Source of the DNA: Geosiphon pyriformis uo1 | Lineage: Eukaryota > Fungi > Glomeromycota | NCBI GenBank assembly: GCA_016748015.1 | Contig: JAAOMT010000659.1 | Coordinates: 623,222 to 687,221 of the forward strand | Direction: 5' to 3' | Length of the DNA: 64,000 nt | Shown here: positions 12,297 to 55,719 of the stretch, piece after piece | How positions within the stretch are numbered: position 1 is the stretch's first letter | Layout: each line of letters begins with the position of its first letter | Notes under the pieces: model-generated | Seen by the model: the letters and a program-made list of their open reading frames with translations, nothing else | Told to the model about the DNA's origin: nothing | Database searches by the model: none | Made by a program: the position numbers and the translations under genes

Positions 12297-12360
12297 TATC
12301 ATGTTTGTTTGTGGGGGAGTTACAAATAATTAAGTTGGTTTGGTTTGAGAGGGTTTATTA

Positions 12361-16491: not shown

Positions 16492-16518
16492 ACAATGAGG
16501 GAATAAGTGAATTTTGAC

Positions 16519-16537: not shown

Positions 16538-16543
16538 CTTTTA

Positions 16544-17196
16544 TGTTATGGGTTGGAGTAACAAGCTAACGGATAGTAAGAGAAAACAGTATTGTATGGT
16601 GATGGAAATAAACAAAGAAGGAATTACAATAAGGGAGCAAATTGAATAAGTAGGATTCAATGTGCGTGATCAGTCTCATAAAAATCACAGTCGCTAATCT
16701 TTTCTTAAATCTGAAGGTAGAGGAATTGTCCGTGATTGTCAACAAGATAATACCACTGCTATTATTCTATGCCTCAACTTGGTGATTCTTAGAATCAATA
16801 ACAGGTATCATTGTGCTTTTCAATTATTTCTTTATTCAATGAATTACAAGAGTAAGCCAATTGCTTTTTAGGCTAATTCTAACAAATACAAATCAAGAAG
16901 AGGAAAAGATAAGGTATGTGAATACCAACAAGTAGATACTTGAAGGTAAGGAAAAGGAAATAAACAATATGAAAGGAAGTAATTGATATTGTTTTATTTT
17001 GTTACTTTGATCATGTTTTTCTACAGCTAAGGGAATCATCGCTTATATAGCTATCTAAAGTGGTCAACGACCAGGTCAACAATCAGGTCATTGATCAGGT
17101 CAATGATCACTATCTAAAAATAGGGTGGCTAATTATATGACATCAATGGCTAATACATGTGATAACTAATAAAAACTTTGGGTTTCAATCATAACA
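16544..17196 (-). repeat. LTR (subfamily a), 5' LTR of unit 2
   Basis: TGTTATGG...CATAACA termini; colinear with the other two LTRs. Confidence 0.9.
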
Positions 17197-22200: not shown

Positions 22201-24149
22201 ATATTGCTGGAATGGCTACAAAAACCAGACTAGCCAACTTGCAGACACAGAGATGGTTAGCTCATAGTATACTTGAATATCCCACCAATAAACAATCCAA
22301 GCCAGAGGTTAATCTTATAGCAAACATTATACAGATGATAGAAAAAAAAGACATTTCATTCAAAGACAATAGTAATACACATGGAATACCTGAATCTTCA
22401 AGACCACAGGCATATTTAATTGAGTCTATCTTACCCTCAAGGGAAACCTACATTAAAGTTAGAAGCTTACTAAGAAAGGAAAACATGTTGTACTTGCATC
22501 AGATACAGAACAAAGATGAGTCGTTGATGACATGGATGGACTTTACAAGGAAGTACAGACAAAGCAATAGTGGTAGAATTCCCAGATGGTTTAAGATTTT
22601 AGAATCTACAATCATTATGGATGAGTACAGAAACATTGATGTAGCACAATGTAAGACATTGGGTATGCACATACTGACTAACCAAATACCTGATGATTTA
22701 GAAATGATGCAAAAAGACACTATTTACATCCATATCCCTGACACTTTACTATCACAATGGAAGAGTGTACAAGGGAAGTTAAAACTCAGGAAAGAGATAG
22801 AAATATCAACAGATGGCTCACTAGTAAAAGCTGGTTCTGAGGAAGCAAAAAAAGCAGCTGCTTTCATAACACATAGGATAGAGACCAAATTTGGTATAGC
22901 AATTGATAGAACATTGTTATCAATGAAAGCAGAGACAGTGGCTGTATTGCTAGCTTTGGAAGCAGTGCCTTACAAATGTAAACTAATGATAAACACAAAT
23001 AGTCAAGCGGTAATGGCAACGGCTCAAAGATGGTTGTCCAAAGATTCTCTCCTGTCTATTAGAAATCAGCTTAAAACTTCAAACTGGCACACATAGAATG
23101 CAATCAGAGTGATAATAAAAGAAAAAAGGATTGACCTCAACATGAACAAAGTGGCTGTACATGCTAGTATATTCGAAAATAAGAAGGCTGACAAACTAGC
23201 CAAAGGATCTACTGCTCTTGATACAATAAGGTGGGCCTACAATGCTAAGGAGACTGCATACATTCCCGTTTGTGGAGGAGTTGAAGTGGATCTAAACTTC
23301 AGGCATTTTCTGAACAAACAGGCTAGTCTTCAATCAGCTTTAGACTGAATAGGCAATAACAAAATCCAAAAAATGATAGGATCTTTAGACCAAGATATAG
23401 ACTGGATATGTACAACCAAAATTTGGAACTGAGATGGTAAAATGTCATTAGGCTTCACCTCAGCTAGTTCCTCAGCAATGCACACATTTATTATGAAATT
23501 ATTTCACAACATGCTGCCAACAGCAGAGGTGCTATACAACAGACATCCTCATGTATACTTGAATAATCTTTGCAAGACATGTCACAAGAAAGTGGAAACC
23601 AACTGGCACTTTTGGGATTGCTCTTTGAATATCCATGATGTAAAGAATAAGTGGATACAGTGCCTTTCAAAGGCTGTGAGAGGGGGACGCAGAGCCCAAA
23701 ACACTGATGAGAAGATTGCACTGTCTAATGAATACATTAGGTCAATATCTAACGTAGATCTGCTATGTAAAGGACTGATCAATAAGCAATTTGGAAGGAT
23801 CAATACTTTTTCTGACATCGACTTGAGGGCTAGCAATAAAGTATTGATTAAGGTGTATAAATGGGCAGTTGCTCAAGCAAGGAATAGATTGTGAGGAGAA
23901 CGTTGCAAACTGCAAACTGAATGGGAAAAAACAATGAGTATTAATAATAGGATCAAAAAAAATCCAACTGGTGGCTCCAGAATAAATAGCATTTCAGGGA
24001 ATGGTGGTAGAGTTAGCAATGGATCCATAGTCAAAATAGGTGATGTTTCCACACAGTGTAATGATATACTGACTAATGTTTTTTGTGATAGGAGTACTAT
24101 GTGTGATAGTGTTGTACCCCATAGATTTTTAGGTTATACTAGCGTGTAG
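19248..24149 (+). pseudogene. LINE ORF2 (APE endonuclease, RT, RNase H, Cys/His domain)
   Basis: IGTVNVRGLN, ETK, RLDYVF, TDHKAV (APE); LIPKP, HLAFV(N/D)DT, YLGV (RT); STDGS, ENKKADKLAK (RNase H); CKTC...HFWDC; ends LGYTSV*. Confidence 0.92.
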
Positions 24150-24913
24150 TTAGGCGTAACCACTTAGTAGTTAGCTGCATCTTGTAATTTAGATTATTGG
24201 GTGAGTTGGCTTTATGAAAAGGTCATGCTTTGTAAGTATGGCTAACCTAATAAAAGACCAACATAGCTACATGTTAACAAAAAAAAAACCCTAGCCAAAA
24301 CCAGTAAAGAAACAAACTTATGGGACAAAATACTGCCTTCAGCTTTGTTTGCTTATAGAACTGTGAATCATGACATAACAAGTTATGAACCCTTTTATCT
24401 ACTCTATGGACAAATGGCAACCTTACCAATAGAAACTGACATTGAGACAATACCCTTTGAAGAAATAACAATAGGGAATTACAAAGACATTTTGCAAAGA
24501 AAACTTGGTACCATTCTTGACTCATTAGTAGAAGCATGGATAATTGCCTTTGAAAAAATAAAACAATTCCAAGAGAAGCTTAAGAAAAAAAAAACATATA
24601 AAACACTTTCCTTAAGTGTTGGCAACTTAGTTTTAGAATACCATTCAGACAGAAACAATGTCTATGGTGATAAATTATCTAGCTGGTGAAAAGGACTCTT
24701 TATAGTCAACAAAGTTTTGAACAATGGTTCTTATATCTTACAAGATCAATATAAAACAATTTTCAATAATTGCCCTGTTCATGGCACATGATTCAAGAAA
24801 TATCACAAACGACCTGATTGGTTGCCTGTTGTGGTAATACTGACTCAAATAATCAACAAAAATCAAGTATAAATAAACACACCATTCCCAAAACAGAGGT
24901 ATCTTCAATCAAC

Positions 24914-25570
24914 ATAAACAATTATTTTCTGGATCAAAACATTCAAAACACTTTCTATACTCTCCATGAGTATTGGATCAAAAACTATCCAAATGCTACT
25001 TTGACCATTGGAAAACAGACCACCATAACTGATAACAGTGGGATACATACTGTTATTAGACCAAAGAAAACCACTATCAGAAAAGAGAGAATTGATAGCA
25101 AAATGGATAAATATCTGTTGGAAAGTATAACAGCAGCTATACTCCTATCTTCCAACACAATTGGAAAAACACTTCAAGAAATCTTACTCATAGACAAAAA
25201 CTTGTTATATGGAAGACAATTAAAACTCTATGGTTACCTTGGTGAAATCATAGAAGATATGAAGCTCATAAAGAAAACAACTTCAAAGATACAGGCAAAA
25301 ATTTTGGGCATTATACAGTTAGATGTTCCAAGAGTTTTAACTATTGCTAAAAGAGCCAAAACTCTAATACAAAGATTTGGTCTCTTGGATACAAAACTTA
25401 TTTCGCCTCAAGTGTTATATACCTTATCCACAAAAGACTTCAACAAACTAGTTAGTTTTGAATTAGATAAAACCTTTCAAATAGATTACACCATAAATAG
25501 CTTAATTTCACTGGAGCTCAATCTCTTTGGAGAGAATGATGTTATGGTTGAAACTTATACTTCTTATTAA
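24914..25570 (+). pseudogene. Gypsy ORF4 (start ATG mutated to ATA, otherwise open)
   Basis: Part of ORF 24818-25570; homologous to 4602-5258. Confidence 0.75.
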
Positions 25571-25598: not shown

Positions 25599-27147
25599 TT
25601 TTTTTTTTGTTAATGTGTAGCCATGCTGGTCTTTTATTAGTTTAACCACACTTACAAAGCATGACCTTTTCATAAAGCCAACTCACCCAATAATCTAAAT
25701 TACAAGATACAGCTAACCACTAAGTGGTTACACCTAACTACACGCTAGTATAACCTAAAAATCTATGGGGTACAACACTATCACACATAGTACTCCTACC
25801 ACAAAAAACATTAGTCAGTATACCATTACACTGTGTGGAAACATCACCTATTTTGACTATAGATCCATCACTAATTTTACCACCATTCCCTGAAATGCTA
25901 TCTATTCTGGAGTCACCAGTTGGATTTTTCTTGATCCTATTATTAATACTCATTGTTTTTTCCCATTCAGTTTGCAGTTTACAATGTTCTCCTTACAATC
26001 TATTCCTTGCTTGAGCAACTGTCCATTTACACATCTTAATCAATACTTTATTGCTAGCCCTTAAGTCGATGTCAGAAAAAGTATTGATCCTTTCAAATTG
26101 CTTATTGACCAGTCCTTTACATAGCAGATCTATGTTAGATATTGACCTGATGTATTTATTAGACAGTGCAATCTTCTCATCAGTGTTTTGGGCTCTGCGT
26201 CCCCTTCTCACAGCCTTTGAAAGGCACTGTATCCACTTATTCTTTACATCATCAATCAATGTCTTGCCCTTTTGGGTATTCAAAGAGCAATCCCAAAAGT
26301 GCCAGTTGGTTTCCACTTTCTTGTGACATGTCTTGCAAAGATTATTCAAGTATACATGAGAACATCTGTTGTATAGCACCTCTGCTGTTGACAGCATGTT
26401 GTGAAATGATTTCATAATAAATGTGCACATTGCTGAGGAACTAGCTGAGGTGAAGCCTAATGACATTTTACCATCCCAGTTCCAAATTTTGGTTGTACAT
26501 ATCCAGTCTATATCTTGGTTTAAAGATCCTATCATTTTTTGGACTTTGTTATTGCCTATCCAGTCTAAAGCTAATTGAAGACTAGCCTGTTTGTTCAGAA
26601 AATGCCTAAAGTTTAGATCCACTTCAACTCTACCACAAACAGGAATGTATGCAGTCTCTTTAGCATTGTAGGCCCACCTTATTGTATCAAGAGCAGTAGA
26701 TCTTTTGGCTAGTTTGTCAGCCTTCTTATTTTCGAATATACCAGCATGTGCAGCCACTTTGTTTATGTTGAGGTCAATCCTTTTTTCCCTTATTATCACT
26801 CTGATTGCATTCCATGTGTGCCAGTTTGAAGTTTTAAGCTGATTTCTAATAGACAGGAGAGAATCTTTAGACAACCATCTTTGAGCCGTTGCCATTACCG
26901 CTTGACTATCTATGTTTATTGTTGGTTTACATTTGTAAGGCACTGCTTTCAAAGCTAGCAATACAGCCACTGCCTCTACTTTCATTAATGACAATGTTCC
27001 ATCAATTGCTATACCAAATTCAGTCTCTATCCCATGTGTTATAAAAGCAGCCGCTCTTCTTGCTTCCTTAGAACCAGCTTTTACCAGTGAGCCATCTGTT
27101 GATATTTCTATCTCTTTTCTGAGTTTTAACTTCTCTCGTACACTCTT
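25599..27147 (-). mobile_element. 5'-truncated LINE copy (RNase H to poly(A)) with 13-bp TSD
   Basis: Poly(T) 25599-25608; TSD GCCACTAATGTCA at 25586-25598 and 27148-27160; ORF 25993-27174 encodes RNase H. Confidence 0.93.
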
Positions 27148-27757
27148 GCCACTAATGTCATATAAATTAGCCACTTTATTTTTAGTAAGTGATCATTGAC
27201 CTAGTTGTTGACCTGATCATTAATCACTTTTGATAACTATATAAGCAATGAATCTCTTAGCTGTAGAAAAGTATGAAAAAATCAAGGAAATCAAATAAAT
27301 AAAATAACAACTTTCATCTCAATTATTCTCTTATCACTAATTTTCCTTTTTCTACTTTTAAGTATCTGAACATCTTAAAGATAAAAGATTACTTGTTGGT
27401 TATTTTTTACCCTTTTTCCAAAATGTGTAATTACAACATTTGAAGATTATTGAATAAAATGTGACTAAAGAGTACATCTGATATCTGATATTGAATTCTA
27501 ATAGCGTCGATATGAAGCATAGAATTATACCAGGTGTGATCATTTGTTGACAATACAGACTATTTCTCTACCTTCAGATTCCCCGGTTATCTTTTAAAAA
27601 GTATAGCAACTGAGATATTTTATGAGACTAATCTTACACATTGAATTCATACTTATTCAATCTACTCTTTGAAGTTGAATTCCCTTTGATTATTTCCATT
27701 ACCCTACAATTCTGTTCTCTCTTGTTATCTGTTAACTTGTTACTCCAATCTGTAATA

Positions 27758-30429: not shown

Positions 30430-32696
30430 AAGTGTCTGATAACAATGTCAACAGTAAAGTGAGACCAGTTATGCAAAGAAGTACAAGTGTAGAGACTATT
30501 AATAGTGAATATCAAGTGAAGAGAAACATAACTTCCACTGTTGAAAAAGAAAACTTTAACACTAATTCATAGAATTCATTAACTGTGAAAACTGCAAGAC
30601 CTACTATATCTCCATTTAAATTTAAAACTACCAATAGACCATTTGGAAGTGTGAACACAAGTAGTGGAGATGATACACCCTTTAGAATAGCCAACACATT
30701 GAAAAGAACAGCTTCACATAGGAGAGCAGCAGACTTTTCTTCAACAACAGCTAACAGATTAGAGGAAAAAGCCAACAAAAAATACAGACACATTGGAAGA
30801 ATAAGTGTAAAAAAGCTAACTGAAAAATTCAACCAAATAACTAAAGAAGACCTATCCAAAAACACATCTGTTTAAACCAACAACTTTGTCTTGCAACCAA
30901 TGTTCAACAAAAGAGGAAACAGCAACAAATTTCAAATAGAAGCTTGGACTGGAGAAAAGAGAGTCTCAAAGTCCCTAAAAAAAATGAATAAACCATCCAA
31001 AACACCAAAAAAAGACAGAGAAAAAGCTGCACAAATAGAAGCAGCTCTAAGAAAATGCAATCCTGACATTTTGGACAGAATCAACAGAAGAAGTTCTGCA
31101 ATAGAAAATAATGAGCAAATGGACAACCCATTTGACACAAACAGAGATAAGCCTAATGTGGATGATACTGCAGATGACATAAAAAACTCTGAATTCAGCC
31201 TATCAAGCAGAATGGCTAGTCCAAGTCCAGATCAATACAGTAGTAAATCACTTGGCAAAAAACCCATGCTTATGGAAGCAAGCCAGGAGAAAGAATGGAA
31301 AACAGTGGTTTATGGGACCAAAAGACATGTACTTTTTGTGCAAGCATTAGATATACCTGAAAAAATTATGGGAAAGAAAGTGGGATGGATTTATGATCTC
31401 TTGGAAGATGTTAGTTACCTCTTGGGGGCTGTAATGGCTAGGAACCAAGAAATCAGAATTGATTTTTCCCAAGTGGCTGAAAGAGACCAAGCCAGAGAAA
31501 TTCTGGCAAATAAAAGAATTGATGGCTACTGATGGGGTTAACAACCAAATGACTGGTCAAAAAAAAGTCCTGGTGAGAGATATCCCCTTGGGCATCTTAG
31601 ACAGAGAGATGGGAGCTGTCATGAAAGAATTCAGTAAGGTCAAGAAAATTCAAATCAGAGTGGCTGACAAATGACAATCAGCAGTGGTTGAATATAACAA
31701 CCAAGAAGAGGCAACCAAAACTGTAAACCAATGGTCAACTATGGTCAGAAAAAATGCAGTCAGAATTTACCCAATGATTGAAACCCAAAAAACCATTGAG
31801 CAGAGAAAAGCCTGGAAAGCTAAATTGGTGGACTTACTACAAAACTGTACTGCTCACTACTTGAGCACCACTTTGGATCAAATTAAAGTCCAATCTTGTT
31901 TCATCCCAAGAACTAGCAAAAATTATACAAGGATGGGCTGTGCTTATATAGAATTTAACAGTGAAGCTAGCTGCAACAATGCCACCAAAAAGCACTTGGT
32001 AATTGGTGACACACTGGTCTACTGGATGCCCACTAATGCTAAAGAGTGCCACTTCTGTTATTAGGTGGGGCATCTGGTCTCAAAATGTCCAACTTTGCAT
32101 AAGAAGAAAAAAGGAGATACCAAGAAAGTTACCAACAATATTAGGTTAGCAAAGCTGTATGTTAAGAGGAATGTTTCAGAAAAAAATGTTAAGGCCTTTG
32201 GTGGAAGATCATATGCTAAGATGGCTGTACTTAGACTGCCTCATAATTGGGACAACACCAATCTAAATGGTACTTGAAAACCTGGTCCACAGATAAACAA
32301 TAGAGAAAAACAATCAAAAAAAAGAGTCAACCAATCATGGAAGGCTGAAATCAATGAATTAAGACAGCAGGTTAATGAAATGGCAAAACTGCTAAGTGTA
32401 GTTGCTGCCAAACTTGGAGTGACAATGGAAAAAAAAAAGAAGTAATAGTTACTTAACAGCCAAGTAACACCACAGAAGAAAAGGAAAAAATAGAAAATAG
32501 GTCACCAAGCCAAAGTACTACAATTAAATCTACTCCAGCAGAGAGAAAAGAGGTATACAACTCGGAATTAGAGATAAAAAAAATTAAAAAAACACTGGAA
32601 CCCATTCTGGAGTTATTGAAGCAAGTAAAAAAACAGGGTAGCTAGAGCAGTTTTACTGCTGAAAAATCTAAATCTATGGAAACAGATAATGTGTAG
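30430..32696 (+). pseudogene. LINE copy 2 ORF1 (N-terminal remnant lies in 27848-27978)
   Basis: Homologous to 17197-19255. Confidence 0.8.
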
Positions 32697-35600
32697 CACA
32701 TTTAATTTCAACAAAAAACAGAACTACTCTAATAACAACACTTGGAAAATTGGTACTGTTAATGTTAGAAGACTTAATAATCCTGGTAAAGCTAAAAAGA
32801 TGCTACATTGGATTATTGAAGAACAATTTGATTTTGTGATTGTTACAGAAACAAAAATTACTCCAACAAAAAAAAAGAGTGTATTCTTTGGTTCTGATGA
32901 ATATTATGCCTTTTGGGAGTTAAGTGCAGAGAAACAAATAGGAACTGGTGTTGGTATACTGGTCAAAAAATGTTGGATACATCATGTGAAAACAATCAAG
33001 AAATATTATGGGAGGCTTTTACATTTGGGGTTAAAATTTAGAGGAAGAATCAATGTGCACATAGTAGGACTGTACATGTCTGCTTCCAAATTGCCTACTG
33101 AGAAAGCAGTTGCTAAAGAAATTAGAAAACTTTTGGGAGACATTGTGCAAAACAAAGAGATAATCATAGTTGCAGACAATTTGAATGAAGATCTGTCATC
33201 CAAATCACTTGAAGAAACATATGCTACAAATAAGGTCAAAGCTTGTTCCACTGTTGCAACACTACAACATATGAATTTAGTAGATACACATGGAGTGTAT
33301 GCAATAAACAATCCAGAAAAGACATGGGCATTAAATGGAGTACAAAGAAGATTGGATTATGTGTTTACTGATACAGTTACAGCCTTACTGGTCACAAACA
33401 TTGCGATAATTTATGTTAATGAATCATTTAGCACTGATTACAAAGCAGTAATAACAATTATCTGATCTGACAGAATCTTGGCAGGCAATAAAAAATCTAG
33501 ATCTGGGAGGAAAAAGAGTAGCACAACTATGATTGATGTTAAAAAAGCATCTGGAAAACAATGGGAAATCTATGCAAAAGAAACTGATTGATTGACAGAT
33601 GAAGCACAAAGAAAATTAGGAGATAACAGCAATGATGATCTAAACCTGATGTGGATTACAATCAAGAAGACTGTATTACAAGCTGCTGATTGCCTACCAA
33701 AAAGGAAAGTGGGAGCCCGATCTGCACACACAAAGAAAAAATGCATGGATCACAAGCTTGTTAAGATTGTTGCTGATATAATCAAACAAATAAGAGTAAA
33801 CAATGCAAATATACATGATAACAATGTTATGCAGTTGTTGGCTAAATGGAAACAGTTGAAACCTGAAATGGTTAATGCATATTTGATGATTCTTTCAAAG
33901 GATAAGCTTATTACAGAATTATTCAATATTAAGAAAGAATACAGATCAACACTACATGCTAGAATCAAGCTACAACAGCAGAGACAAATAGTGGACAATA
34001 TCATCAAAAGACAACAAAACTTTGATCTAAACAAAAGAGCTATAATCAAAAGCATCTTGAACAAAAAAAGACAAAGAATTGTATTGGACCATGTCATTGA
34101 AGAAGGCAAATTTCATGATGATCCTGATGAGATTAAAAAGCTAGTAAACAAAAAAGCCCAAGGATGGACTAGAACAAGAATTCTTGAGCCTAACCTATGG
34201 AAAAGTTGGGAACACAGATTTGAGCCGATTAAATACATTCCAGACCATGTCTTTGATGGTGTAATGACTAAAATATCAAATAAAGAATTTGAACACATAT
34301 TAAGCCACACACCCATAACAAAGCTTCTGGCCCATCAGGTATTCAAGCTGAACTCTAAAGGAAGACTGGGCCTAATACCAAATCTAAACTAAAAACATTG
34401 CTTAACACTTGTATTAAAGCAGCAAACATGCCTGAGGAGTAAAGAGTAGCACAAGTTATACTGATTCCAAAGCCAAAAGAATGGGGTGACAATATTGACA
34501 TCACCAGGCCGATTACACTCATTGAAAGCACTAGAAAAATCTTAAAGATTCTAACTGCAAGAATATCAAAAGCATGTGAACTCCACAATGTTCTAAAAAG
34601 TTATAATACCTCAGTGTTAAAGAATACCTCTACAGCAGTGCCAATTCATGTGATTAATACTGTTGCTGAACATGCAAAAAAATTTGGTAATGAGGCCTGG
34701 TTTACATTCCAGGACATAAAAAAAGCATATGATTCAGTGGGATGGAAACCCATAGAAGCTGCACTAAAGAGAATTAAGATGAACAATAAGTTTACTGAGC
34801 TGTTTGGCTTGATGCACAACAATAAAAGCAATAAGATTATAACTGAATTTGGGTTAAGTAACAAATATCAAGTACAAGATAGACTGGATCAGAGGAAAAC
34901 AAGCTCACCTATTATGTGGAGGATTTTCTATGACTCCTTACTATGTGAAGTAAAACAATTCAATTATAGTTATAGATACAAACTAACAGCTGCTTGGAAA
35001 AAGTGGGATAATCAATCAGATACACAATCTCTGTTGGTATTAGTGAATCACCTAGCTTTTGTTGATGACACAGTGTGGATAGCTAACTTAAGACAGGGCA
35101 TGCAGAGTATTTTGGACACAGCTAGCTCCTTTTTTAGAATGGTGGATATAGAGATCAATTTAGATAAGACTGAAACAATGGTGGTCAGACTCTTCAAAGG
35201 GAAATCACTGACAGTTGAGCCACTAAAATTTGGTCCAAACAAACAAATCTTGAAATTGCTGGATCCATCTACATGTATCTAATATTTGGGGGTATAAATC
35301 AGAGCAGATGGAAAAAATGACACTGTTCTAAAAATGATAGGATCTGACATTGAAGCAGTATGTGCAATTATTAGGAAAAAACACATCACTGAGAAACAGA
35401 CCATTTATATTTTTAACAGAGTTCTCAGTCCAGCAATAGAATTCAGATCTTAATTGACCCATATTCCAAATAGCTGGGCTAGAAAATGGACTTCAAAGAT
35501 TTCAGCCACTGTAAAGAAAAAAGCAAAACTTTTAGTCAATTTCCTAGCCAGTGCTATGTATTATTCATTCTTATATAACTTGTTCAAAATTGATGATATA

Positions 35601-36025
35601 CAAGCAAAAAGCAAGATCACAAATTTGTTGGTTAGATTGAACAGTGCTGATATTGCTGGAATGGCTACAAAAATCAGACTAGCTAACTTACAGGCACAAA
35701 GATGGTCAACCCATAGTATACTTGAATACCTTACCAATGAAAGATTTAGACTAGGTGTTAATTTAATTGTTAATATTATACAGATTATAGAGAAAAGAGG
35801 CATTTCATTTAGGAGTGATGGTAACACACATGTGGTACCCAAATCCTCAAGATCACAGGCATACTTAATTGAGACTGTCATACCTTCAGGTACAACTTAC
35901 ACTAAAGTTAAAAGTTTCCTAAGAAAGAAAAACATTTTGTACCTGTATCAGATACAGAACAAAGATAAAACATTGATGACATGGATGGACTACACAAGAA
36001 TATACAGACAAAACAATGGTGGTAG

Positions 36026-36747
36026 TGTTATGGTTGAAACTCATAGTTTTTATTAGTTATCACATGTATTAGTCACTGATGTCATATAATTAGCCAACCT
36101 ATTTTTAGATAGTAATTATTGACCTGATTATTGATCTGATCATTGATCTGATCAATAACCTGACCATTAATCTGATCATTGACCTGATCATTGACCTGAT
36201 TATTGACCTGGTTATTGACCACTTTTCATAGCTATATAAGCAATGAGTCTCTTAACTGTAGAAAAGTATGTTCTCAACAATCAAAGAAATATAATAAAAC
36301 AACTTTCATCTCAAACATTCTCTTATCGCTAATTTTTCTTTCTCTACCTTCAAGTATCTGAACATCTTTTGGATAAAAAATCTTTTGTTAGTGTTTATCT
36401 GCCTTTTCCTGAAATGATTAAACAAAGTATTTGAAGATTATTGAATAAAATGTGATTAAAGAGCACATCTGATACTTGATATTGAATTCTAAGAGTGCTG
36501 ACGTGAGGCATAGAATTATACCAAGTGTGATTATTTGTTGACAGTACAGACTATCTCTCTACCTTCAGATTCCCTGGTTACTTTTGAAAAGTATAGCGAC
36601 TGAGATATTTTATGAGACTGATCTTGCACATTGAATCCATACTCATTTAATTCACTTATTGAAGTTGAATTCCCTTTGATTATTTTCATCACCCTACAAT
36701 TCTGTTCTCTGTTGCTATCCATTAGCTTGTTACTCCAACTTGTAACA
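36026..36747 (+). repeat. 5' LTR of F1 (subfamily b)
   Basis: TGTTATGG...TGTAACA termini; TATA-like TATATAA 36233-36239; AATAAA at ~36445. Confidence 0.92.
36116..36220 (+). repeat. 12-bp tandem repeat (consensus ~TCATTGACCTGA), 8-9 units, in U3
   Basis: Read directly; copy number varies among LTRs. Confidence 0.85.
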
Positions 36748-36753
36748 TAAAAG

Positions 36754-36772
36754 TGGTGCTCCCTGTGAGGTT
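36754..36772 (+). promoter_or_regulatory. Primer-binding site (elongator tRNA-Met-like)
   Basis: TGGTGCTCCCTGTGAGGTT after LTR-TAAAAG. Confidence 0.7.
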
Positions 36773-36799
36773 GTCAAAATCCACTTTGTTTTCTATTAT

Positions 36800-38353
36800 A
36801 TGGGTGATTATTCATACCTGCCACAACAATCAGAAGAACACTTTAAAGCACACAACAAAAATGATCTAAACTTTATTGAACTCAATCCTTTGCCCTCCTG
36901 CTTGATTTGCTTTTCCATTGAAGAACAATTCAGCAGACAATTCCAAGCCTTTTGGAACTGGTTCTTGAATGAGCATTCAGCTGAAACCTACACAGCTTAT
37001 ACAATCTATTACTTTGACCAAGCTTATTTTGAAGACAACTTTAAAGGAAGAAACAATAGTATCAATCAGCTTTTATATTCTGCAACTTTTGAACAACAGC
37101 CCCCTGATTTTAAATATCTGAATCATCAAATCCACATTTGGATTGCTGCCCATCAATCAACAGAAACTTCTCTTGAAACAGAAGAAGAAAGCTATCAAAC
37201 TGCTCCTGTTTTTGATCTCTTTTCAAGTAAATCAGAACACTCCACACAAACAGTTACACCTGAACCAATGGCTCAAGACCCTCTGCAACAAAACATTCTG
37301 ATTGCCCTTCAAGGTATACAGACTGCTTTAGGGTGAAGAAACAACACCCCATTACCATTATTCAGAGGTGATGCCCAAGATCTAATTGAATGGTTGGATA
37401 ACTTTGAGAAAGCTGTTACAGCCAACCAATACAATAATGAGTACAAGTTTCAAATTGTTGGTGGCTACCTCCAAGGCTCTTCTGCTACATGGTTCTCACA
37501 GGAAACTGATGCTAATGCTCATCAAAGAATCATTAGATGGATGCCAGCAAATGCAGGAAAAAACAACACCTCTTTTACAACCCAGTTTGAAAACAAGTTC
37601 AGAACTCCAATCTTGATATCCAAGTGGCACATGAAATTAGAAAGAAGAACCCAAGGCCCAGGAGAAGTGGTAACTGAATATGCCAAAGCAATCAAAAAAT
37701 TGATCAAGCATGTAGACTCTGAAAGGAACTGAACAAAAAAGCAAAAAATTCATTCTTTCACGAAAAGACTAAGAACTGATTTATCTTATGCTCTTTAGCC
37801 TCTCTTGGCTCTAAAGAATAACCCTACAATGGACATGGCTATTGAATTTGCCCAACGAATTGAAGACAACCAAAGAATACATTTGGGATCTACACTTCCA
37901 GTTTTTGCTTCTGTTCCTGTCATGGCTCCTGCTCCTCAAATGACTGCTACTTTTTTTGCTGCCCAAACTCAAGATTCAAATAAACAATTAATTAATAGAC
38001 TCACAGCCAATCTTGCCTGGTTATTAGAACCTTTGGCACAAGCAGTTAGAGATAACCAACAACCACAAAGACCCAGATATAAACCATGTTTTAATCAGCC
38101 CCAGCAACCTCCTTATCAAGGACAGCAAAATCATGGTCTTCCTGTATGTTATAGATATGGATTAACTGGACATTTCTCAAGAGATTGCAACAATCCTCCT
38201 TTACCTCCTCCAGTCCTCAGAAATAATAACAATTAAAACAATAGACTCATCAACAATAATGCTCTCAATCAAAGACCCAACCATGCCAACATCAATTTCT
38301 TTGGAGAGAATCCTCTAGTTGAAGCCATAGTCTATCAGTCTTTAAACTGGTAG
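36800..38353 (+). pseudogene. gag of F1
   Basis: ORFs 36800, 37394 and 37805; decayed knuckle CYRYGLTGHFSRDC. Confidence 0.9.
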
Positions 38354-38390
38354 GCATACCTCCAAAAGGTGAGAGTACAAGCCAACCAGA
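38341..38390 (+). promoter_or_regulatory. Putative -1 ribosomal frameshift signal (TTTAAAC plus downstream hairpin)
   Basis: T TTA AAC in the gag frame, one codon before the stop; the -1 frame opens into pol; present in all four copies. Confidence 0.75.
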
Positions 38391-41034
38391 AAAAAACCCC
38401 TTTTTTGCTTTTAACTTAACTAATGATGACCATGACATGAATGAATTAGCAATCAACACTTCTGAATCAACCAGAAAAAAGAAGAAAGCCAAGGTTGATT
38501 TCATTCTAGATCCCAACAAAGCCTAAACTTCCACTGCTGATAACAATGAGCCACCAAAAGCCAAAGTTTTTAAGAACTCTCCAAAGTTGGAACCCCCAGA
38601 AATTGTACAAAAATCTGGATCCTATTCTGTTGTCAAAGATCTCATGGAAACCCCAGCACACATTACCTTTGGCCAGTTAATGACTCATCCACAATTCAGA
38701 AAAAATCTTCACAAATCTCTAATCCCCAAGAAAAAAACACCAAAGACCAATAAATGCCCTCACCAAGCTGGACTTGCTGACAACAGCAATGTCACTTCTC
38801 TAATTTGCAAAGCACAAGTGGCTGGTTATTTTATTGACTTGATCCTAGACAGTGGATCATCTGTTAGTGTAATTGCCAAACACTTCCTTGATGCAATTGG
38901 CAGAAAAATTGATGAGCCTTCCACCCAACCAATAACCAACATACATGGTAACAAGAAGAAAAGTCTGGGCATTGCCAAAGCTATTCCTGTCTGCATTAAT
39001 GGCATCAGTATTGAAACTGACATAGAAGTTTCTGAAGCTAAAGAATACACCATCATTGTTGGCAATGAGTGGCTCAAGAAAGTAAAAGCCTTATTCAACT
39101 ATGAACTTTGTGAGCTAACCATAAGATGTGGTGAAAAACCTATTGTGGTTAAATGTTGCCATTAGACAACTCTTCCAGCAACCAAACAAAATCAAGAAGA
39201 TGAGCAATCAGAGAAATCAGATGATGAAAAGAGTGATGAAAAAGATGAACAAGAAGAACAAAAAGAAACTGCTGAACTCACCTACACCATCTTCACCAGC
39301 AATGACAAGCCACTAGACAATATTAAAGCTGATAGAGAGGAAATCATTGTAAATGGCAAGCTGATCTGCTGACCCTACTATGATATTCTTAGAAGAACTT
39401 TTGACCAAAAACCTGACAAGAAAGCCAAGTATCATTATTGGTGGCATGGTTCTTGTGCCCAGTGCTGGTGCAACCAACTCTTGTATTCTCCAAGTGATGA
39501 ATGCAAATCATGCCTGATCTATTACAAAGATTGGGAACCAATCAGTTTAATACTTAGAGAAGAATTGAAAAAAGTCCAAAAGTCCTTTAAAAATGAACCA
39601 CCTGAGATCCAATCACTAGTTGTAGAACAAAAAGAACCATCACCTGAAGAAAAAAAGATTGATATTGAAAATCTGCTAGCTAGAAACAGCCCAGTTATCT
39701 CAAAAGAAGGTGATACCTCTGGACGAACCCATGTGATACAACACATTATCACCACCAGAAAAACTCACTCCATCTATTTGAAGCCATATCAATTCAATCA
39801 GCACAATGATGAGTTCATCAAGAAAGAGATAAACCAGATAAAAGAACTTAGATTCATACAAAAAACCAAGAGTGAATGGGCTTTTTCAGTTGTAGTGGTA
39901 TCCAAAAAAGGTGGAACCCTACACTTCTGTGTTGACTACTGCCAATTAAATGCCATCACTGAAAGAGACATGTACCCACTTCCCAAGATTGATGCAATAC
40001 TGGACCAATTCAAAGATGCTGCTTTCTTTTCAACTATTGATCTAACTGCTAGATTCTGGCAAGTAGAGATGGATCCAGAAAGCTGGAAGAAAACTGCCTT
40101 TATCACCAAGTATGGCACCTATGAATTCACAGTCATGTCTTTTGGTCTCACCAATGCCCTTCCCATCTTTCAATGCTTAATGGATAAAGTATTTGAATCA
40201 GTGAAAGAAAACTTTGTTTTGGTCTATCTGGACAATATAATGGTGTACTCAAAAACCTGGGATAAACACCTTGTACATTTGCAAAAGGTTTTTGATCTTC
40301 TCAGAAATGCAGGTCTCAAGATTAATCCAATCAAATCTTTCTTTGAAAGACAATCCACCCAATTTCTTGGTTATCTTATTACAAAAGATAGAATTTTTCC
40401 TAACCCAGCTAAGGTTGAAAAAGTCCAAAACATTAGACAACCAATGAATATTCATAAACTACACTCTTTCCTTGGTTTGGCTTCCTATTATCACAAATTT
40501 GTCAAAGATTTTTCCAAAATAGCTGCTCCACTTAATCAACTACTCAAGAAAAATGTCAACTACCATTGGGACACACATCAACAAAAAGCTTTTGAAACTC
40601 TAAAGGAAAAACTAATCACTAAACCAATTCTGAAACAATCTGATCTAGATCAACCTTTCATCCTCCACACTAATGCATTTGGCTATGGACTTGGAACTGT
40701 TTTATTCTAGAAAGATGAAGATGGCAAAGAACATGCCATAGCATATGCCAATAGAACTCTCTCACCAGCAGAGCAGAACTACTCGGTAACTGAACAAGAA
40801 TGTCTGACAGTAGTATGGGCTACTAGTTATTAGAACAAATATCTTCTTGGTGCCAAATTCCTGATAGTAACAGATTACCAAGCTTTGGTTTGGTTATGCA
40901 ACAAAAAGAAGCTAGAACATAAAAAAATAACTTGCTGAATACTCCACTTGGATGAATTCGACTAAGATATTCAACATCACAAAGGAGCACATCATCAAAA
41001 TGCCGACACTTTCTTTAGACTTACCATCCAGTAA
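38341..41034 (+). pseudogene. pol (PR-RT-RNase H) of F1
   Basis: ORFs 38587-39165 and 39481-40710; ends RLTIQ* (TAA 41032-41034). Confidence 0.9.
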
Positions 41035-41099
41035 CAGTACAACTACCTCAAACCAAATCAACCTAATTATTAGTAATTCTCTCACAACCAAACACAATA

Positions 41100-42405
41100 A
41101 TGAACTTGGACAACTACTCTGTCTTAATGGAATTTTTGGATAAAGGACAATACTCACCAGAATACAATTGACAGCAAAGAGAACATTTGCACAAATAATC
41201 AAATTTTTATTTGATCTGCCAGAACCAACTATACAAAAGAAACAGAAAAGATCCTGACCATCTCCAGAGAGTCATAAAATTTGAAGAAAGAGAAATTGTG
41301 ATCTACAATATGCACACTAATTTATTAGCTGGACACTTTGGAAAAACAAAAACAATTCAGAAAACCTTAGCTTACTATTATTGGCCTACCTTGGGAAAAG
41401 ACATTGCTGAATACATTAAAACCTGCAATACCTGCCAAAGAAGAAGAAAACCCAATCGCAAAGAAGATATCCATTTAATTTCTGTTGGTCAACCATTTAA
41501 CAGAATTGGTATAGATGTTATTGAACCTTTAACAGTAACTCCTGATGGCAACAGATACAGCTACCAACTATCTTACAAAGTGAGTAGAAGCAAGAGCCAC
41601 CCCAGATCAAACAGCAGTTTCAATAGCCAATTTCATTTATGAAGATATCATTTGTCACCATGGCTGTTTTAAAGAACTATTACCTGATAGAGAAAGAGCT
41701 TTTTTCAGTACACTGGTTGAAAAACTTTGTAGAAAAATGGGAATACGTCACAAACTTTCTTCCCCTTATCACCCCTAAACAAATGGCCTAATAGAACGTT
41801 TCAATAGAACACTGTGTGAAACCTTAGCCAAAACAAGTGAAAAAACAAACTTATGGGACAAAGTACTGTCTTCAGCTTTGTTTGCTTATAGAACTGTGAA
41901 TTATGACATAACAAGTTATGAATCTTTTTATCTGCTCTATGAACAAATGGCAACACTACCAATAGAAACTGATATTAAGACAATACTCTTTGAAGAAATC
42001 ACAATAGGGAATTACAAAGACATTTTGCAAAGGAAACTTGGTACCATTCTTGACTCACTTGTAGAAGCATGAATAATTGCCTTTGAAAAGATAAAACAGT
42101 TCCAAGAAAAGCTTAAAAAGAAGAAAACCTATAAAACACTTTCTTTAAGTATTGGTGACTTAGTTTTGGAATACCGCTTAGACAGAGACAATGTCTATGG
42201 TGATAAATTCTCTAGTCGGTGAAAAGGTCCCTTTATAGTCAACAAAGTTTTGAACAATAGTTCTTATATTCTTCAAGATCAATCTGGAACAATCTTTAAT
42301 AATCATTCTGTTCATGACATGCAACTCAAAAAATATTACAAACGACCTGATTGGTTACCAATTGTGATAATACCAACCCAAATGATTAGCAAAAACCAAA
42401 TATAA
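41100..42405 (+). pseudogene. Integrase ORF of F1
   Basis: ATG at 41100; H2C2 motif; KGPFIV; ends MISKNQI*. Confidence 0.88.
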
Positions 42406-42447
42406 ATAAATGCACCATTCCCAAAAACAGAAGTATCTTCAATCAAC

Positions 42448-43104
42448 ATGAACAATTATTTTCTGGATCAAAACATTTAAAATGCTTTCTATACTCTTCA
42501 TGAGTATTGGATCAAAAACTATCTAAATGCTACTCTGACCATTGGAAAACAAACTACAATGACTGATAACAGTGGAACACATACTATTATCAGACCAAAG
42601 AAAACAACTACCAGAAGAGAAAGAATTGGTAGCAAAATGAATAAGTATCTGTTAGAAAGCATAACAGCAGCAATACTTGTATCTTCTACCACAATTGAAA
42701 AAATGATTAAAGAAATCTTGCCCATAGACAAAAACTTGTCATATGGAAGACAACTAGAGCTCTATGGTCGCCTTAGTGAAATCATAGAAGACATGAAGCT
42801 CATGAAGAAAACAACTTCTGAGATACAAGTGAAAATTTTGGGCATTATATGGTTGGATGTCCCAAGAGTTTTGACCATTGCCAGAAGAGCCAAAACTCTT
42901 ATACAAAGGTTTGGTCTCTTGGATACAAAGCTTATTTCGCCTCAAGTACTATACACTTTATCCACAAAAGACTTTAATAAACAAGTTAGTTTTGAGTTAG
43001 ATAAAACCCTCCAATTAGAATATCCCATAAATAGTTTGATTTTGTCTGAGCTCAATCTCTTTGAAGAGGATGATGTTATGATTAAAACTCATAGTTTTTA
43101 TTAG
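42448..43104 (+). pseudogene. ORF4 of F1
   Basis: ATG at 42448, one early CAA>TAA change; remainder is ORF 42559-43104. Confidence 0.78.
43063..43073 (+). promoter_or_regulatory. Polypurine tract
   Basis: GAAGAGGATGA (GGAGAGGATGA in other copies) abutting the 3' LTR. Confidence 0.75.
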
Positions 43105-43711
43105 TTATCACATGTATTAGCCACTGATGTCATATAATTAGCCAACCTATTTTTAGATAGTAATCATTGACCTGGTCATTAACCACTTTTCATAGCTATA
43201 TAAGCAATGAGTTTCTTAGCTATAGAAAAGTATGTTTCCAACAATCAAAGAAATATAATAAAACAACTTTCATTTCAAACATTCTCTTATCATTAATTTT
43301 TCTTTCCCTACCTTCAAGTATCTGAACATCTTTTAGATAAAAGATTTCTTGTTGATGTTTATCTGCCTTTTTCTGAAACAATTAAACAAAGTATTTGAAA
43401 ATTATTGAATAAAACATGACTAAAAAGCACATCTGATACTTGATATTGAATTCTAAGAGTGCCAATGTGAGGCATAGAATTATACCAAGTGTAATCATTT
43501 GTTGACAATACGGACTATCTCTCTATCTTCAGATTTTCCAGTAATCTTTGAAAAGTATAGCAACTGAGATATTTTATAAGACTGATCTCGCACATTGAAT
43601 CCATACTCATTCAATTCGCTCATTGAAGTTGAATTCTCTTTGATTATTTCCATCACTCTACAATTCTGTTCTCTATTGCTATCCGTTAGCTTGTTACTTC
43701 AATCTGTAACA
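43074..43711 (+). repeat. 3' LTR of F1
   Basis: TGTTATGA...TGTAACA termini; colinear with 36026-36747 but with fewer 12-mers. Confidence 0.92.
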
Positions 43712-45440
43712 GTAGAATTCCCAAATGGTTTAAGATTTTAGAGTCTACAATCATTATGGATGAGTACAAGAACATTAATATAGTACAATATAAAGTATTA
43801 GGAATGCACAAACTGACTAACCAAATCCCAGATGATTTTGAAATGATGCAAAAAGATACCATTTACATCCATATTTCTGACACTTTATTATCACAGTGGA
43901 GGGGTGTATGAGAGACATTGAGGTTCAAAAAAAAAATAAAAATATCAACAGATGGCTCAATGGTAAAAGCTGGCTCTAAGAATACAAAAGAAGAGGCTGC
44001 TTTCATAACACATAGAATAGAGGCCAAATTTGGTATAGCAGTTGATAGAACATTATTGTCAACAAAAACAGAGGCAAAGACTGTGTTATTGGCTTTGGAA
44101 GCAGTATCTTACAAATGCAAACTAATGATAAACACAGATAGTCAAGTAGTAATGTCAATGGCTCAGAAGTGATTGTCTAAAGATGTACCCTTGTCTATTA
44201 GAAATTAGCTTAAAACTCCAAACTGGTACACATGGAATGCAATCAAAACAATTATTAGTGAAAAGAAGATTGATCTCAACATAAACAAAGTGGCTGCTCA
44301 TACTGATGTATTGGAAAATGAAAAGACTGACAAACTAGCCAAAGTGTCTACCATTCTTGATACTGTAAAGTAGACCTACAATGCTAAGGAAACTGCATAT
44401 ATTTTTTTTGCAAAGGAGTTGAATTGGATTTGAATATTAGACATTTTTTAAGCAAACAGACTAGTCTTCAAGCAGCATTGAATTGGACAGACAACAACAA
44501 AGTCCAAGAGTCAATAGCAGTTTTAGACCAAGATATAGATTGAATGTGCACAACCAAGATCTGAAACTGGAATAGAAAAATGTCATCAGGCTTCACCTCA
44601 GCTGGTTTGTCAGTGATGTGAACATTTCTTATGAAATTATTTCACAATATGCTGCCAATTGTAAAGGTGCTATACAACCAATGTCCTCTTGTGTACTTAA
44701 ACAATCTTTGCAAAATATGTCACAGGAAAGTGGAAACCAACCAACACTTTTGGGAATGCTCTCTGAATACCCAAGAGAGCAAAATACTGATTAATGATGT
44801 AAGAAACAGGTGAATACAGTGCCTATCATAGGCTGTGGGAGGTAAATGAAAATTCTTAAACACTAATGAAAAGATTGTACTGTTTAGTAAATATATTATG
44901 TTATCATTCAACATAGATTTGCTATGTAAAAGATTGGTCAATAAGCAATTTAGGAGAATTAATGCTTTTGCTGACATCAACCTAAAAACTAGCAATAATG
45001 TATTAATTAAAGTGTGTAAATGGGCAGTTACTCAAGCAAGAAATAGATTGTGAGAAGAACAGTACAGATTGCAAACTGAGTAAGAAAAATCCAAGAGTAT
45101 TGATAACAAAGTCAAGAAAAATCCATATGATGGCTTCAACATATATAACACATCAAGGGATGACAATAGGGATACTGGCAAACACATAGTAGGAATAGGT
45201 AACAATATGTAATAATATATTAACTAGTGTTTTTTGTAATAAGAGTATCTTGTATAGTAGTGTGATACTCCATAGATTTTCTGGTTATACTAGCATGTAG
45301 TTAGACATAACCACTTAGTGGTTAACCACATTTTGTAATCTAGATTATTGGATGAGTTGGCTTTATGAAAAGGTCATGCTCTGTGAATGTGACTAAACTA
45401 ATAAAAGACCAGCATGGCTACATGTTAACAAAAAAAAAAA

Positions 45441-48668: not shown

Positions 48669-49347
48669 TGTTATGGTTGAAACTTATACTTCTTATTAAT
48701 TATCACATGTATTAGCCACTGATGTCATATAAATTAGCCACTCTATTTTTGGAAAGTGATTATTGACCTGATCAATGACCTGACTGTTGACTTAATCATT
48801 GACCTAATTATTGACCACTTTTGATAACTATATAAGTGATGAATCTTTTAGCTATAGAAAAACATGTAAGAATCAAAGAAATAAAGAAATAAAATAACAA
48901 CTTTATCTTAATCCTTCTCTTATCACTAATTTCTCTTTCCCTATCTTCAAGTATTTGAACATCTTAAAAAATAAAAGACTACTTGATGGCATTTACCTAT
49001 CCTTTTCCTGAAACATGTAATTGCAGTATTTGAAGATTATTGAATAAAACATAACTGAAGAGCATATCTGATACTTGATATTGAATTCTAAGAGCATTGA
49101 TGTGAGGCATAGAATTATACCAAGTGTAATCATTTGTTGACAGTACAAACTATCTCTCTACCTTCAGATTCACCAGTTATCTTTTAAAAAGTATAGCAAC
49201 TGAGATATTTTATGAGACTGATCTTGCACATTGAATCCATACTTATTTAATTCACTCTTTAAAGTTGAATTCTCTTTGATTATTTCCATCACTCTACAAT
49301 CTTGTTTTTTCTTGCTATCCATTAGCTTGTTATTCCAACTCATAACA
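48669..49347 (+). repeat. 5' LTR of F2
   Basis: TGTTATGG...CATAACA termini, followed by TAAAAG-TGGTGCT. Confidence 0.9.
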
Positions 49348-49399
49348 TAAAAGTGGTGCTCTTTGTGAGGTTTTCAAAATCCATTTTATTTCTTATTGT

Positions 49400-50952
49400 A
49401 TGGGTGATTATTCATACCTGCCACAACAATTAGAAGAATACTTTGAAGCACACAACAAAAATGATCTAGACTTTATTGAACTTAATCCTTTGTCTTTCTG
49501 CTTGATTTGCTTCCCTATTGAAAAACAATTTAGCAGACAATTCCAAGACTTTTGAAACTTGTTCCTGAATAAGCATTTAGCTGAAATCTACACAGTTTAT
49601 ACAACCTATTACTTTAACCAAGCTTATTCTGAAGACAACTTTGAAGAAAAAAACAACAATATCAATCAGCTTTTATATTCTACAACCTTTGAACAACAGC
49701 CTCCTGATTTCGAATATCTGAATCATCAAATCCACATTTGGATTGCTGCCCATCAATTAACTGAAACTTCTCTTAAAACAGAAGAAAAAAGCTATCAAAC
49801 CACTCCCATTTTTGATCTCTTTTCAAGTAAATCAGAACATTTCACACAAACAGTTATACTTGAACCAATGACTCAAGACCCTCTACAACAAAACATTCTG
49901 ATTGCCTTTCAAGGTATACAAACTGCTTTAGGGCAAAGAAACAACAACCCATTACTATTATTCAGAGATGATGCCCAAGATCCAATTGAATGACTGAATG
50001 ACTTTAAGAGAGCTGCCACAGCAAACCAATATAATAATGAATACAAGTTTCAAATTGTTGGTGGCTACCTTCAAGGCTTTTCTGCTACTTGGTTCTCACA
50101 AGAAACCAATACCAATGCTTAGCAAAAAATCATTAGATAGACACTGGCAAATGCTAAAGAAGACAACACCTCTTTCATTGCCCAGTTTGAAATGAAATTT
50201 AGAACTTCCATCTTAATCTTAAAATGGTGTATAAAATTAGAAAAAAGAACTCAAGGCCCTGGTAAGATTGTGACAAAATATGCCAAAGCAATAAGAAACT
50301 CATTAAACAGGTAGACTCTAAAAGAAATTGAACAGAAAAGCAGAAAATACATTTCTTCATAAAAGGACTGAGAACTGATCTATCATATGCTCTTTGGCCC
50401 CTCCTGGCCTTGAAAGATAATCTTACAATAAATATGGCCATTGAACTTGCTCAGAGAATAGAAAACAATCAAAGAATGCATCTAGAATCCACACTTTCAG
50501 TTTTTGCTCCTGCTCTTGTTATGGCTCTTGCTTCTCAAATGGCTGCTACCTCTTTTGCTGTTCAAACTTAAGACCCAAATGAACAGTTAATAGATAGACT
50601 TATAGCTAATCTTGTCTGGCTATTAGAATCATTAGCCCAAGCAGTCAGAGACAACCAACAACCCCAAAGACCCAGATTTGAATCCTGTTTCAATCAGCTC
50701 CAGCAACCACCATATCAAAGACAATAAAATTATGATCCACCTGTGTGCTATTGCTGTGGACTAACTGGACACTTTTCCAGAGACTGTAACAATTCTCCAT
50801 TGCCCCCTCCAGTTCCTAAAAATAATGACATCCAGAATAACAGACCTAACAACAATAATGTTTCCAATCAAAGACCCAATCATGTCAACATTAATTTTTT
50901 TGGAGAAGATCCCTTAGTTGAAGCCACTGTTTATTAGCCTTTAAACTGGTAG
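49400..50952 (+). pseudogene. gag of F2
   Basis: MGDYSY start; CYCCGLTGHFSRDC from 50746. Confidence 0.85.
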
Positions 50953-53900: not shown

Positions 53901-54299
53901 GCAATCTGATTTGGACCAACTTTTTATTTTTACACTGATACATCTGGCTATAGACTTGGTGCTGTTTTTTTATAGAAAAATGAAAATGGCAGAGAACATG
54001 TTATAGCATATGCCAGTAGATCCCTTACACCAACAAAAAAGAACTATTCAGTTACTAAACAAGAATGTTTAACAGTAGTTTGGGCTATCAACTACTGAGA
54101 TCAATATCTTCTTGGTACAAAATTCTTAGTGGTAACAGATCATCAAGCCTTGGTTTGGCTGTGCAAGAAAAAAAAGCTGGAACACAAACAAATAACTCGC
54201 TGAATACTCCACTTGGATGAATTTGACTATGATATTTAACACCACAAAGGAGCAAATCATCAAAATGCTGATGCTTTATCTAGACTTACCATCCAGTGA
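50940..54299 (+). pseudogene. pol of F2, interrupted by the solo LTR
   Basis: ORFs 51036 and 53104; ends SRLTIQ* (TGA 54297-54299). Confidence 0.85.
51325..51990 (-). repeat. Solo LTR with perfect 4-bp TSD ATAC
   Basis: ATAC at 51321-51324 and 51991-51994; TGTTACAG...CTGTAACA termini. Confidence 0.93.
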
Positions 54300-54364
54300 C
54301 AGTACAACTTCTCAAACTAAACCAACTTAATTATTAGTAACTCCTTTATAAAACAAACATAATA

Positions 54365-55678: not shown

Positions 55679-55719
55679 ATAAATGCATCATTTTTAAAAC
55701 AGAGATATTTTTAATTAAC

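Follow-up and report, generated by a model that had tools for sequence, protein, structure and literature searches.

A split complement of the tRNA-Met anticodon arm in the LTRs of a Ty3/gypsy retrotransposon from Geosiphon pyriformis

Two short boxes separated by a spacer are found inside the LTRs of a retrotransposon from Geosiphon pyriformis. Read together, they are complementary to the anticodon arm and variable loop of tRNA-Met, and the LTR is followed by a primer-binding site (PBS) fitting tRNA-Met. This raises the question of whether the box pair is a chance resemblance, a relic of a captured tRNA, or a second site at which the element holds its primer. The window analyzed here is a stretch of 64,000 nucleotides, and all coordinates refer to it.

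The retrotransposon and its LTRs

The window is a nest of decayed retroelements with a G+C content of 34% (17% in the stretch 58001-60000). Domains of retrotransposon gag, aspartic protease, reverse transcriptase (RT), RNase H, and integrase were recognized with Pfam, and their order, based on Pfam and tblastn, is that of Ty3/gypsy elements. Pfam also recognized pieces of LINE-type endonuclease, RT, and RNase H. In the database search, the best named protein matches were from Geosiphon pyriformis, with 76-82% identity, and the remaining close ones were from Glomeromycota, with around 50% identity. Short segments of gag reached 95-97% identity to Geosiphon pyriformis with tblastn.

The element with the box pair spans 36026-43711 and has a 4-bp target duplication on both sides (Table 1). 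It is a Ty3/gypsy LTR retrotransposon of the autonomous type, in which all the hallmarks are present: the gag-to-integrase order, LTRs of the form TG...CA, a PBS, a purine tract, and the target duplication. The 14 LTR copies that were aligned are divided into a short-spacer subfamily (3 copies) and a long-spacer subfamily (11 copies), which are around 70% alike.

Table 1. Features of the element with the box pair and of the short-spacer counterpart
Feature	Position	Strand	Remarks
5' LTR, Ty3/gypsy, TG...CA, long-spacer subfamily	36026-36747	+	partner LTR 43074-43711; 4-bp target duplication
TATA box of the putative promoter	36233-36239	+	within a 17-column run identical across subfamilies; implies an R or U5 location of the boxes
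AATAAA, likely poly(A) signal	36444-36449	+	12/14 copies; 10-column invariant run inside a 62%-identical region
Box 1 ACCTTCAGAT	36561-36570 (36571 with the extra last base)	+	complement of tRNA-Met nt 38-47 (37-47 extended)
Spacer, 40 nt	36571-36610	+	predicted to be looped out, weak fold; 28 nt in the short subfamily, 39-41 nt in others
Box 2 TATGAGACTGA	36611-36621 (36610 with the extra first base)	+	complement of tRNA-Met nt 27-37 (27-38 extended); covers the CAU anticodon
Hairpin, 7 bp, adjoining box 2	36630-36651	+	stem common to both subfamilies, loop differs; one stem base decayed here
Gap from LTR end to PBS, 6 nt	36748-36753	+	identical in 4/4 PBS-bearing LTRs
PBS, 19 nt	36754-36772	+	132 nt downstream of box 2; fits eukaryote-type tRNA-Met(CAU) at its 3' end
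Internal region: gag, protease, RT, RNase H, integrase, then purine tract	36800-43073	+	decayed: stops, frameshifts
3' LTR of the box-pair element	43074-43711	+	boxes 43525-43534 and 43575-43585; one transition in each
Short-subfamily module	10438-10486	-	box 1 10477-10486, 28-nt spacer 10449-10476, box 2 10438-10448
Short-subfamily hairpin	10408-10429	-	beside the module 10438-10486
Short-subfamily PBS	10286-10304	-	beside the module 10438-10486

An earlier note on this DNA had assigned the boxes to U5. Because the TATA box lies at 36233 and the AATAAA at 36444, and no conserved AATAAA was found downstream of it in the LTR among the 14 copies, U5 is the most likely location, as read from these two signals. 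This placement bears on one alternative role, a bridge: situated in R, or acting through a second tRNA, the boxes would pair with tRNA-Met and tie together the genome ends or dimer RNAs for minus-strand transfer. The complementarity and conservation described below apply equally to such a bridge, and the position of the poly(A) site is a prediction from the sequence. In the accessible text on Drosophila Gypsy, the ends are bridged in vitro by a second site of 11 nt close to the 3' end (PMC1635307), and Ty3 is described as similar. Against this, the AATAAA around 115 nt upstream of box 1 in 12 of the 14 copies, with no conserved one downstream, would leave the boxes in U5 and at the 5' end only. 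The bridge is considered unlikely.

Several other features of the LTRs were observed. The 6-nt gap also precedes the PBSs at 10304, 16537, and 49354. It exceeds the 0-5 nt window given in the available text of a plant survey, and with such a gap the integrase would need to trim an unusually long end. Target duplications of 4 bp with a central TA were seen for five elements (36026-43711, 51325-51990, 4026-17196, 48669-57035, and 57236-57866), exact in two and with one mismatch in three, hinting at a target preference. A 12-nt tandem repeat in U3 (36105-36220 and the equivalent site in other LTRs) varies from about 1 to 9 copies per LTR and is a possible enhancer array. By eye, the LTRs at 36026-36250 and 43074-43210 combine a U3 like that of the short subfamily with R-U5 of the long type, which suggests recombination near the transcription start.

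The surroundings include a tandem array of LTR-internal-LTR-internal-LTR at 4026-17196 on the minus strand, in which the middle LTR (about 10311-10988) is preceded by a purine tract and followed by a PBS. An ORF of 200-250 codons lies between the integrase and the 3' LTR at 4605-5354 (minus strand), 42481-43101, 55624-56214, and 24818-25567; it had no Pfam match, no chromodomain was detected, and the atlas search gave no informative match. LINE-like elements with endonuclease, RT, and RNase H occupy 17192-24288, 30623-36025 with 43712-45439, and 25599-27153, and the Ty3/gypsy element 36026-43711 interrupts one of them.

Complementarity of the boxes and the PBS to tRNA-Met

The two boxes, with a gap of 0-30 nt allowed between them, were used to search for tRNAs in public collections of viral and prokaryote sequences. 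The pair matched 25 loci, 9 viral and 16 from the prokaryote collection, and ARAGORN predicted tRNA-Met(CAT) over the box motif in 19 of them. This bears out the proposed identity of the boxes, which together complement tRNA-Met(CAU) over its anticodon arm and variable loop. The motif is present also in bacterial-type Met tRNAs. Eukaryote-type tRNA-Met genes (loci L136, L141, L144, L145, L147, and L148) were found on short contigs of prokaryote genome records, and these contigs are probably host contamination.

The eukaryote-type tRNA-Met genes agree with the PBS at 12-13 of 16 nt, none perfectly, in six tRNAs from other organisms. The agreement was 6-8 of 16 nt for bacterial-type Met tRNAs bearing the box motif (n=5) and 6-9 of 16 nt for other tRNA genes (n=5). 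From the PBS, a T-stem strand can be deduced that, in most of the eukaryote-type tRNAs, pairs with the five bases after the box motif. The proposal that the boxes and the PBS match the same tRNA thus holds at the level of the class, since the eukaryote-type class fits both; it is limited by the agreement of 12-13 of 16 nt with tRNAs of other organisms. A tRNA that matches the PBS and lacks the box motif, which would have spoken against the proposal, was not seen among these tRNAs of other organisms. The box-matched tRNA is likely to be the primer of the element. The eukaryote-type class fitting the boxes and the PBS is presumably the elongator, and elongator tRNA-Met is the likely primer. A scan with the 16-nt PBS yielded 7 viral and 118 metagenome loci (49 of the 64 parts of the metagenome collection); none of these 125 loci had tRNA-Met, the boxes, or an RT match, and thus all look like chance matches.

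The match of the boxes was compared with chance by a split-match score, in which the best two adjacent segments of the L131 tRNA were placed up to 80 nt apart in the LTR. Both subfamilies score 21, and the opposite LTR strand scores 10-11. The highest score reached was 16 among 600 dinucleotide shuffles and 15 among 134 non-LTR tiles, and a chance match of the boxes is excluded by this comparison. In two elements scanned along their length, no exact complement of at least 10 nt to all three tRNAs scanned was found other than the boxes; one further 10-nt complementary run was found with one tRNA only.

The positions of the boxes, the spacer lengths of 40 and 28 nt, and the distance of around 130 nt to the PBS were all reproduced. 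The break between the boxes had been located at about the canonical tRNA intron site. Each box extends by one base, to nt 37-47 and 27-38, and therefore the break is ambiguous by 2 nt, from 36/37 to 38/39. This interval is compatible with the canonical site 37/38, as given in the accessible text of PMC4090602, and the break can be placed only within it. The tRNA-Met gene of L145 has a 17-nt intron at the box break.

Conservation of the boxes and the limits of the tRNA similarity

Both boxes are carried by all 14 LTR copies in the window. Exact copies of box 1 were seen in 9 of them and of box 2 in 7, and 5 LTRs have the two boxes exact together. Of the 16 deviations, 15 are of the C>T or G>A type that prevails throughout these LTRs. 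As had been noted, both boxes are kept in two LTR subfamilies with different spacers: 21 of 21 box columns are equal between the subfamilies, while the spacer of 28 or 40 nt shows a 12-nt indel and changes in 5-6 of 28 columns. In the flanks and spacer, 202 of 263 columns are equal by majority and 213 of 263 when decay is allowed (around 77-81%).

The boxes are more conserved than the neighboring LTR sequence, contrary to what the earlier note had named as grounds for rejecting its idea. In the region 36451-36701, variable columns among four lineages number 0 of 21 in the boxes and 62 of 217 elsewhere (Fisher p=0.0013), where the lineages belong to one family separated mostly by one deep split and the columns are not independent. 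Invariant 10-mers and 11-mers elsewhere in the same region number 7 of 177 and 4 of 173, respectively. Each box sits within an invariant run of 16 columns, and no run between the AATAAA and the LTR end region is longer; the end region is in turn invariant over 47 columns. The box pair is a real, non-random, selectively kept feature.

The position G36614, opposite C34 of the tRNA, is A in 5 of the 11 long copies. As the copies with A are spread over the tree, and in one element one LTR has A and its partner G, the substitution is likely decay after insertion. Decay by C>T or G>A occurs in every context, with rates per site over all LTR copies of around 0.51 at CG, 0.35 at CC, 0.26 at CA, and 0.22 at CT. 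Contigs of the sequencing run X1 indicate a very high-copy family whose differences are mostly C>T or G>A among the 40 of 234 matches listed. No compensatory changes were found in the boxes, and the RT searches found no related family with another primer. The RT query had no match in viral contigs; the RT alignment search gave 6 loci with 27-43% identity, and in the 3 of these examined, neither a box within one mismatch nor such a PBS was present. The box pattern with a gap of 30-60 nt was found at 1 viral locus.

The similarity to tRNA stops sharply at the box edges, and there is no tRNA gene at this site. Beyond the boxes, the antisense LTR strand matches tRNA nt 1-26 at 4-6 of 26 positions, and nt 58-73 at 2-7 of 16, both at chance level. 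For nt 48-57, the flank of box 1 matches at 5-6 of 10 in three long copies and at 3-4 of 10 in the short copy. ARAGORN found no tRNA in the window, and its relaxed run on the 14 LTRs gave 7 inconsistent long-intron calls, none of them Met. Rfam gave 17 matches on the LTR, all below the gathering score and none to tRNA.

These edges are relevant to the alternative that the boxes are a relic of a captured tRNA, either an antisense piece of an intron-containing tRNA-Met gene or a product of RT read-through of the primer, kept by chance or for an unrelated role such as a protein site or an RNA fold. A relic would account for the break compatible with the intron site 37/38 (PMC4090602, accessible text), at which L145 does have an intron, and the spacer of 28-41 nt falls within the 6-133 nt range stated for eukaryotic tRNA introns in the source available. 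The orientation would also be the one given by plus-strand read-through, and the 5-6 of 10 matches to nt 48-57 beside box 1 in long copies point the same way. The flanks are otherwise at chance level, however, and the likeness ends before the D arm, T arm, and acceptor stem. Were the relic neutral, it should have decayed along with its flanks, but the boxes have stayed invariant and the spacer has changed. The relic is quite unlikely as the whole explanation, and a capture origin and a present pairing function are not exclusive.

Two further alternatives concern tRNA-derived sequences of other kinds. LTRs with tRNA-like sequence are described in the accessible text on Helenus (PMC10886601), and the LTR here could likewise hold a tRNA-derived RNA polymerase III promoter. 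Only nt 27-47 are kept, though: A and B boxes, looked for at the expected positions with their consensus patterns as motifs, are absent in 4 of the 4 LTR copies scanned for them, and ARAGORN found no tRNA in the window. This promoter, or a chance match in view of the score of 21 against 16 and 15, is highly improbable. Box 2 alone could serve half-tRNA priming as in copia and Ty5, or the box pair could be a target or decoy for tRNA fragments. Box 2 does complement nt 27-38, the region used by the anticodon-loop PBSs of fungal Copia and Helenus in the available text of PMC10886601. It sits 126 nt inside the LTR, however, and the integrase end would be lost if priming began at this point. The LTR here is followed by a full 3'-end PBS, in contrast to an anticodon-arm site directly after the 5' LTR, and half-tRNA priming is reported for Copia lineages only, as far as the available text goes (PMC6317226). 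The in-register box 1 would be left unexplained, and this alternative is very unlikely.

Possible function and comparison with known systems

Some tRNA-pairing role of the boxes is quite probable. With moderate confidence, they are interpreted as an extended PBS that unwinds the anticodon arm of tRNA-Met. Gag/NC would anneal the 3' end of elongator tRNA-Met to the PBS around 130 nt downstream, and with nt 58-76 taken by the PBS, the 5' part of the tRNA would be free to wrap round the boxes. The boxes would then pair with the anticodon arm and variable loop (nt 27-47) of the primer while the PBS holds its 3' end, in a predicted three-way junction of 11 and 12 bp with the spacer looped out. The likely gain would be that the primer is captured selectively and packaged stably and that initiation is controlled, as with the extra boxes of Ty1, and RT would displace the tRNA from the boxes around 130 nt into strong-stop synthesis. 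Besides the substitution at G36614 and the failure to find compensatory changes or a related family with another primer, two points count against the extended PBS: the PBS is already of full length, so there is no obvious need for help in annealing, and all pairing tests used tRNAs of other organisms and energies for unmodified RNA.

The modifications t6A37 and m2,2G26 hinder pairing. In the accessible text of PMC10275265, t6A is found at A37 of tRNAs with NNU anticodons, and m2,2G26 is frequent and usual in eukaryotes. The junction would coincide with modified A37, and the last paired base of box 2 comes right before G26; such limits are to be expected if the partner is a mature, modified tRNA. 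With a modified A37, no intron is needed to account for the break, and the two explanations do equally well.

Pairing of the boxes with the tRNA, as the earlier note suggested, was modeled by co-folding of LTR fragments with the L131 tRNA. Intact-box copies (6 copies shown) are predicted to form 11 and 12 intermolecular pairs with the spacer looped out, that is, a three-way junction. The predicted binding energy to the L131 tRNA ranged from -3.1 to -19.0 kcal/mol over the 14 copies, with a median of -11.7, calculated for unmodified RNA. The medians were -8.6 to -14.5 kcal/mol for 6 other box-bearing Met tRNAs and 0 to -5 kcal/mol for 14 tRNA genes without the motif, and 200 shuffled fragments gave a mean of -3.4 kcal/mol (sd 2.7, minimum -12.5). 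Pairing is feasible for unmodified RNA in this model. The favorable co-fold largely follows from the complementarity and is not independent evidence.

The structures proposed around the boxes fared less well. The spacer, described as able to fold back, folds no better than shuffles in 13 of the 14 copies, and the stems drawn differ between the subfamilies. A 9-column motif in it (36594-36602), invariant between the subfamilies, has 5-6 nt in common with box 2 and could provide another pairing register or a partner for the host D arm. The hairpin beside box 2 has a 7-bp stem in both subfamilies; the form originally quoted is the antisense strand of the short subfamily (10408-10429). Its z score is below -2 in 9 of the 14 copies (mononucleotide shuffles), without compensatory changes. 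The D-loop-like loop belongs to the short subfamily only, and the 11 long copies have a different one. As the loop differs in this way, the D-loop idea rests on 3 copies.

A more specific variant combines pairing with capture. An antisense piece of a host intron-containing tRNA-Met gene would have become an anticodon clamp with the former intron as its hinge; the exon parts would open the anticodon arm, hide CAU from the synthetase and ribosome, keep the 3' end uncharged, and hand the tRNA to the PBS. This complete scenario is distinctly unlikely. The boxes may well stem from capture even with pairing as their function.

The extended PBS can be compared with known systems, here as described in the accessible portions of the papers. 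Drosophila Gypsy has a second 11-nt site for tRNA-Lys2, which lies close to the RNA 3' end and complements portions of the anticodon and T stems; this site is described there as dispensable for cDNA synthesis, and the Gypsy PBS is 11 nt (PMC1635307). Both are Ty3/gypsy elements with a second primer-tRNA site complementing part of the anticodon stem, whereas the present element has two boxes (21-23 nt) for the whole anticodon arm, placed within the LTR and upstream of its 19-nt PBS. The sites of Ty1 and Ty3 for initiator tRNA-Met consist of three segments and target the T and D arms, with PBSs of 8-11 nt and the extra segments in GAG (Ty1) or in the 3' UTR (Ty3) (PMC4974528, PMC5371799). Here, too, a single primer tRNA is complemented by three RNA segments, and a spacer is predicted to be looped out (in Ty1 it measures up to 28 nt), but elongator tRNA-Met is the likely primer, the segments are directed at its anticodon arm and variable loop, and the boxes lie in the LTR. 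Among the traits of a multipartite PBS, segments outside the PBS that complement the primer tRNA are thus present, as tested on tRNA-Met genes of other organisms. The short PBS of 8-11 nt is absent, the PBS here being 19 nt with a fitting implied T-stem strand. The Ty1/Ty3 layout, with T/D-arm targets and segments 3' of the PBS or in the 3' UTR, is also absent, and no other run of at least 10 nt is common to the three tRNAs scanned.

The contacts of HIV-1 with tRNA-Lys3 outside the PBS, in the A-rich loop and the primer activation signal, are short, around 4-9 nt. HIV-1 reportedly also has a tRNA-gene-like sequence in U3-R. HIV-1 and the present element share an LTR sequence that is related to the primer tRNA outside the PBS, with a role in reverse transcription in HIV-1 and a probable one here, the match here being exact over 21 nt in contrast to those short contacts. 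Helenus TRIMs, according to the available text, are non-autonomous, keep the Pol III A and B boxes, and have no priming role found for their tRNA-related sequence (PMC10886601). They resemble the present element in having tRNA-related sequence inside the LTR, fungi included (PMC10886601). Unlike Helenus, which is below 1 kb and non-autonomous, the element here has a full gag-pol internal region, and the pattern is reversed: the A and B boxes are missing, and what has been kept is the stretch between the two.

No report of the box-pair layout was found in the open-access papers searched. By analogy, the module may work like the extra sites of Ty1, Ty3, and Gypsy, with a different layout consisting of a full-length PBS, an anticodon-arm target, and an upstream position in the LTR. 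What is likely novel here is this layout of a second primer-tRNA grip, and the principle is known from yeast and fly retrotransposons.

The choice, uncharging, and holding of the primer have been worked out for few LTR elements, mostly with initiator tRNA or short extra contacts. LTR libraries could be screened for split complements of the element's own primer, which are missed by PBS finders that look only behind the LTR. If the extended PBS is true, a site of 21-23 bp over the whole anticodon arm of the elongator would be a new architecture, present in an abundant element of Glomeromycota.
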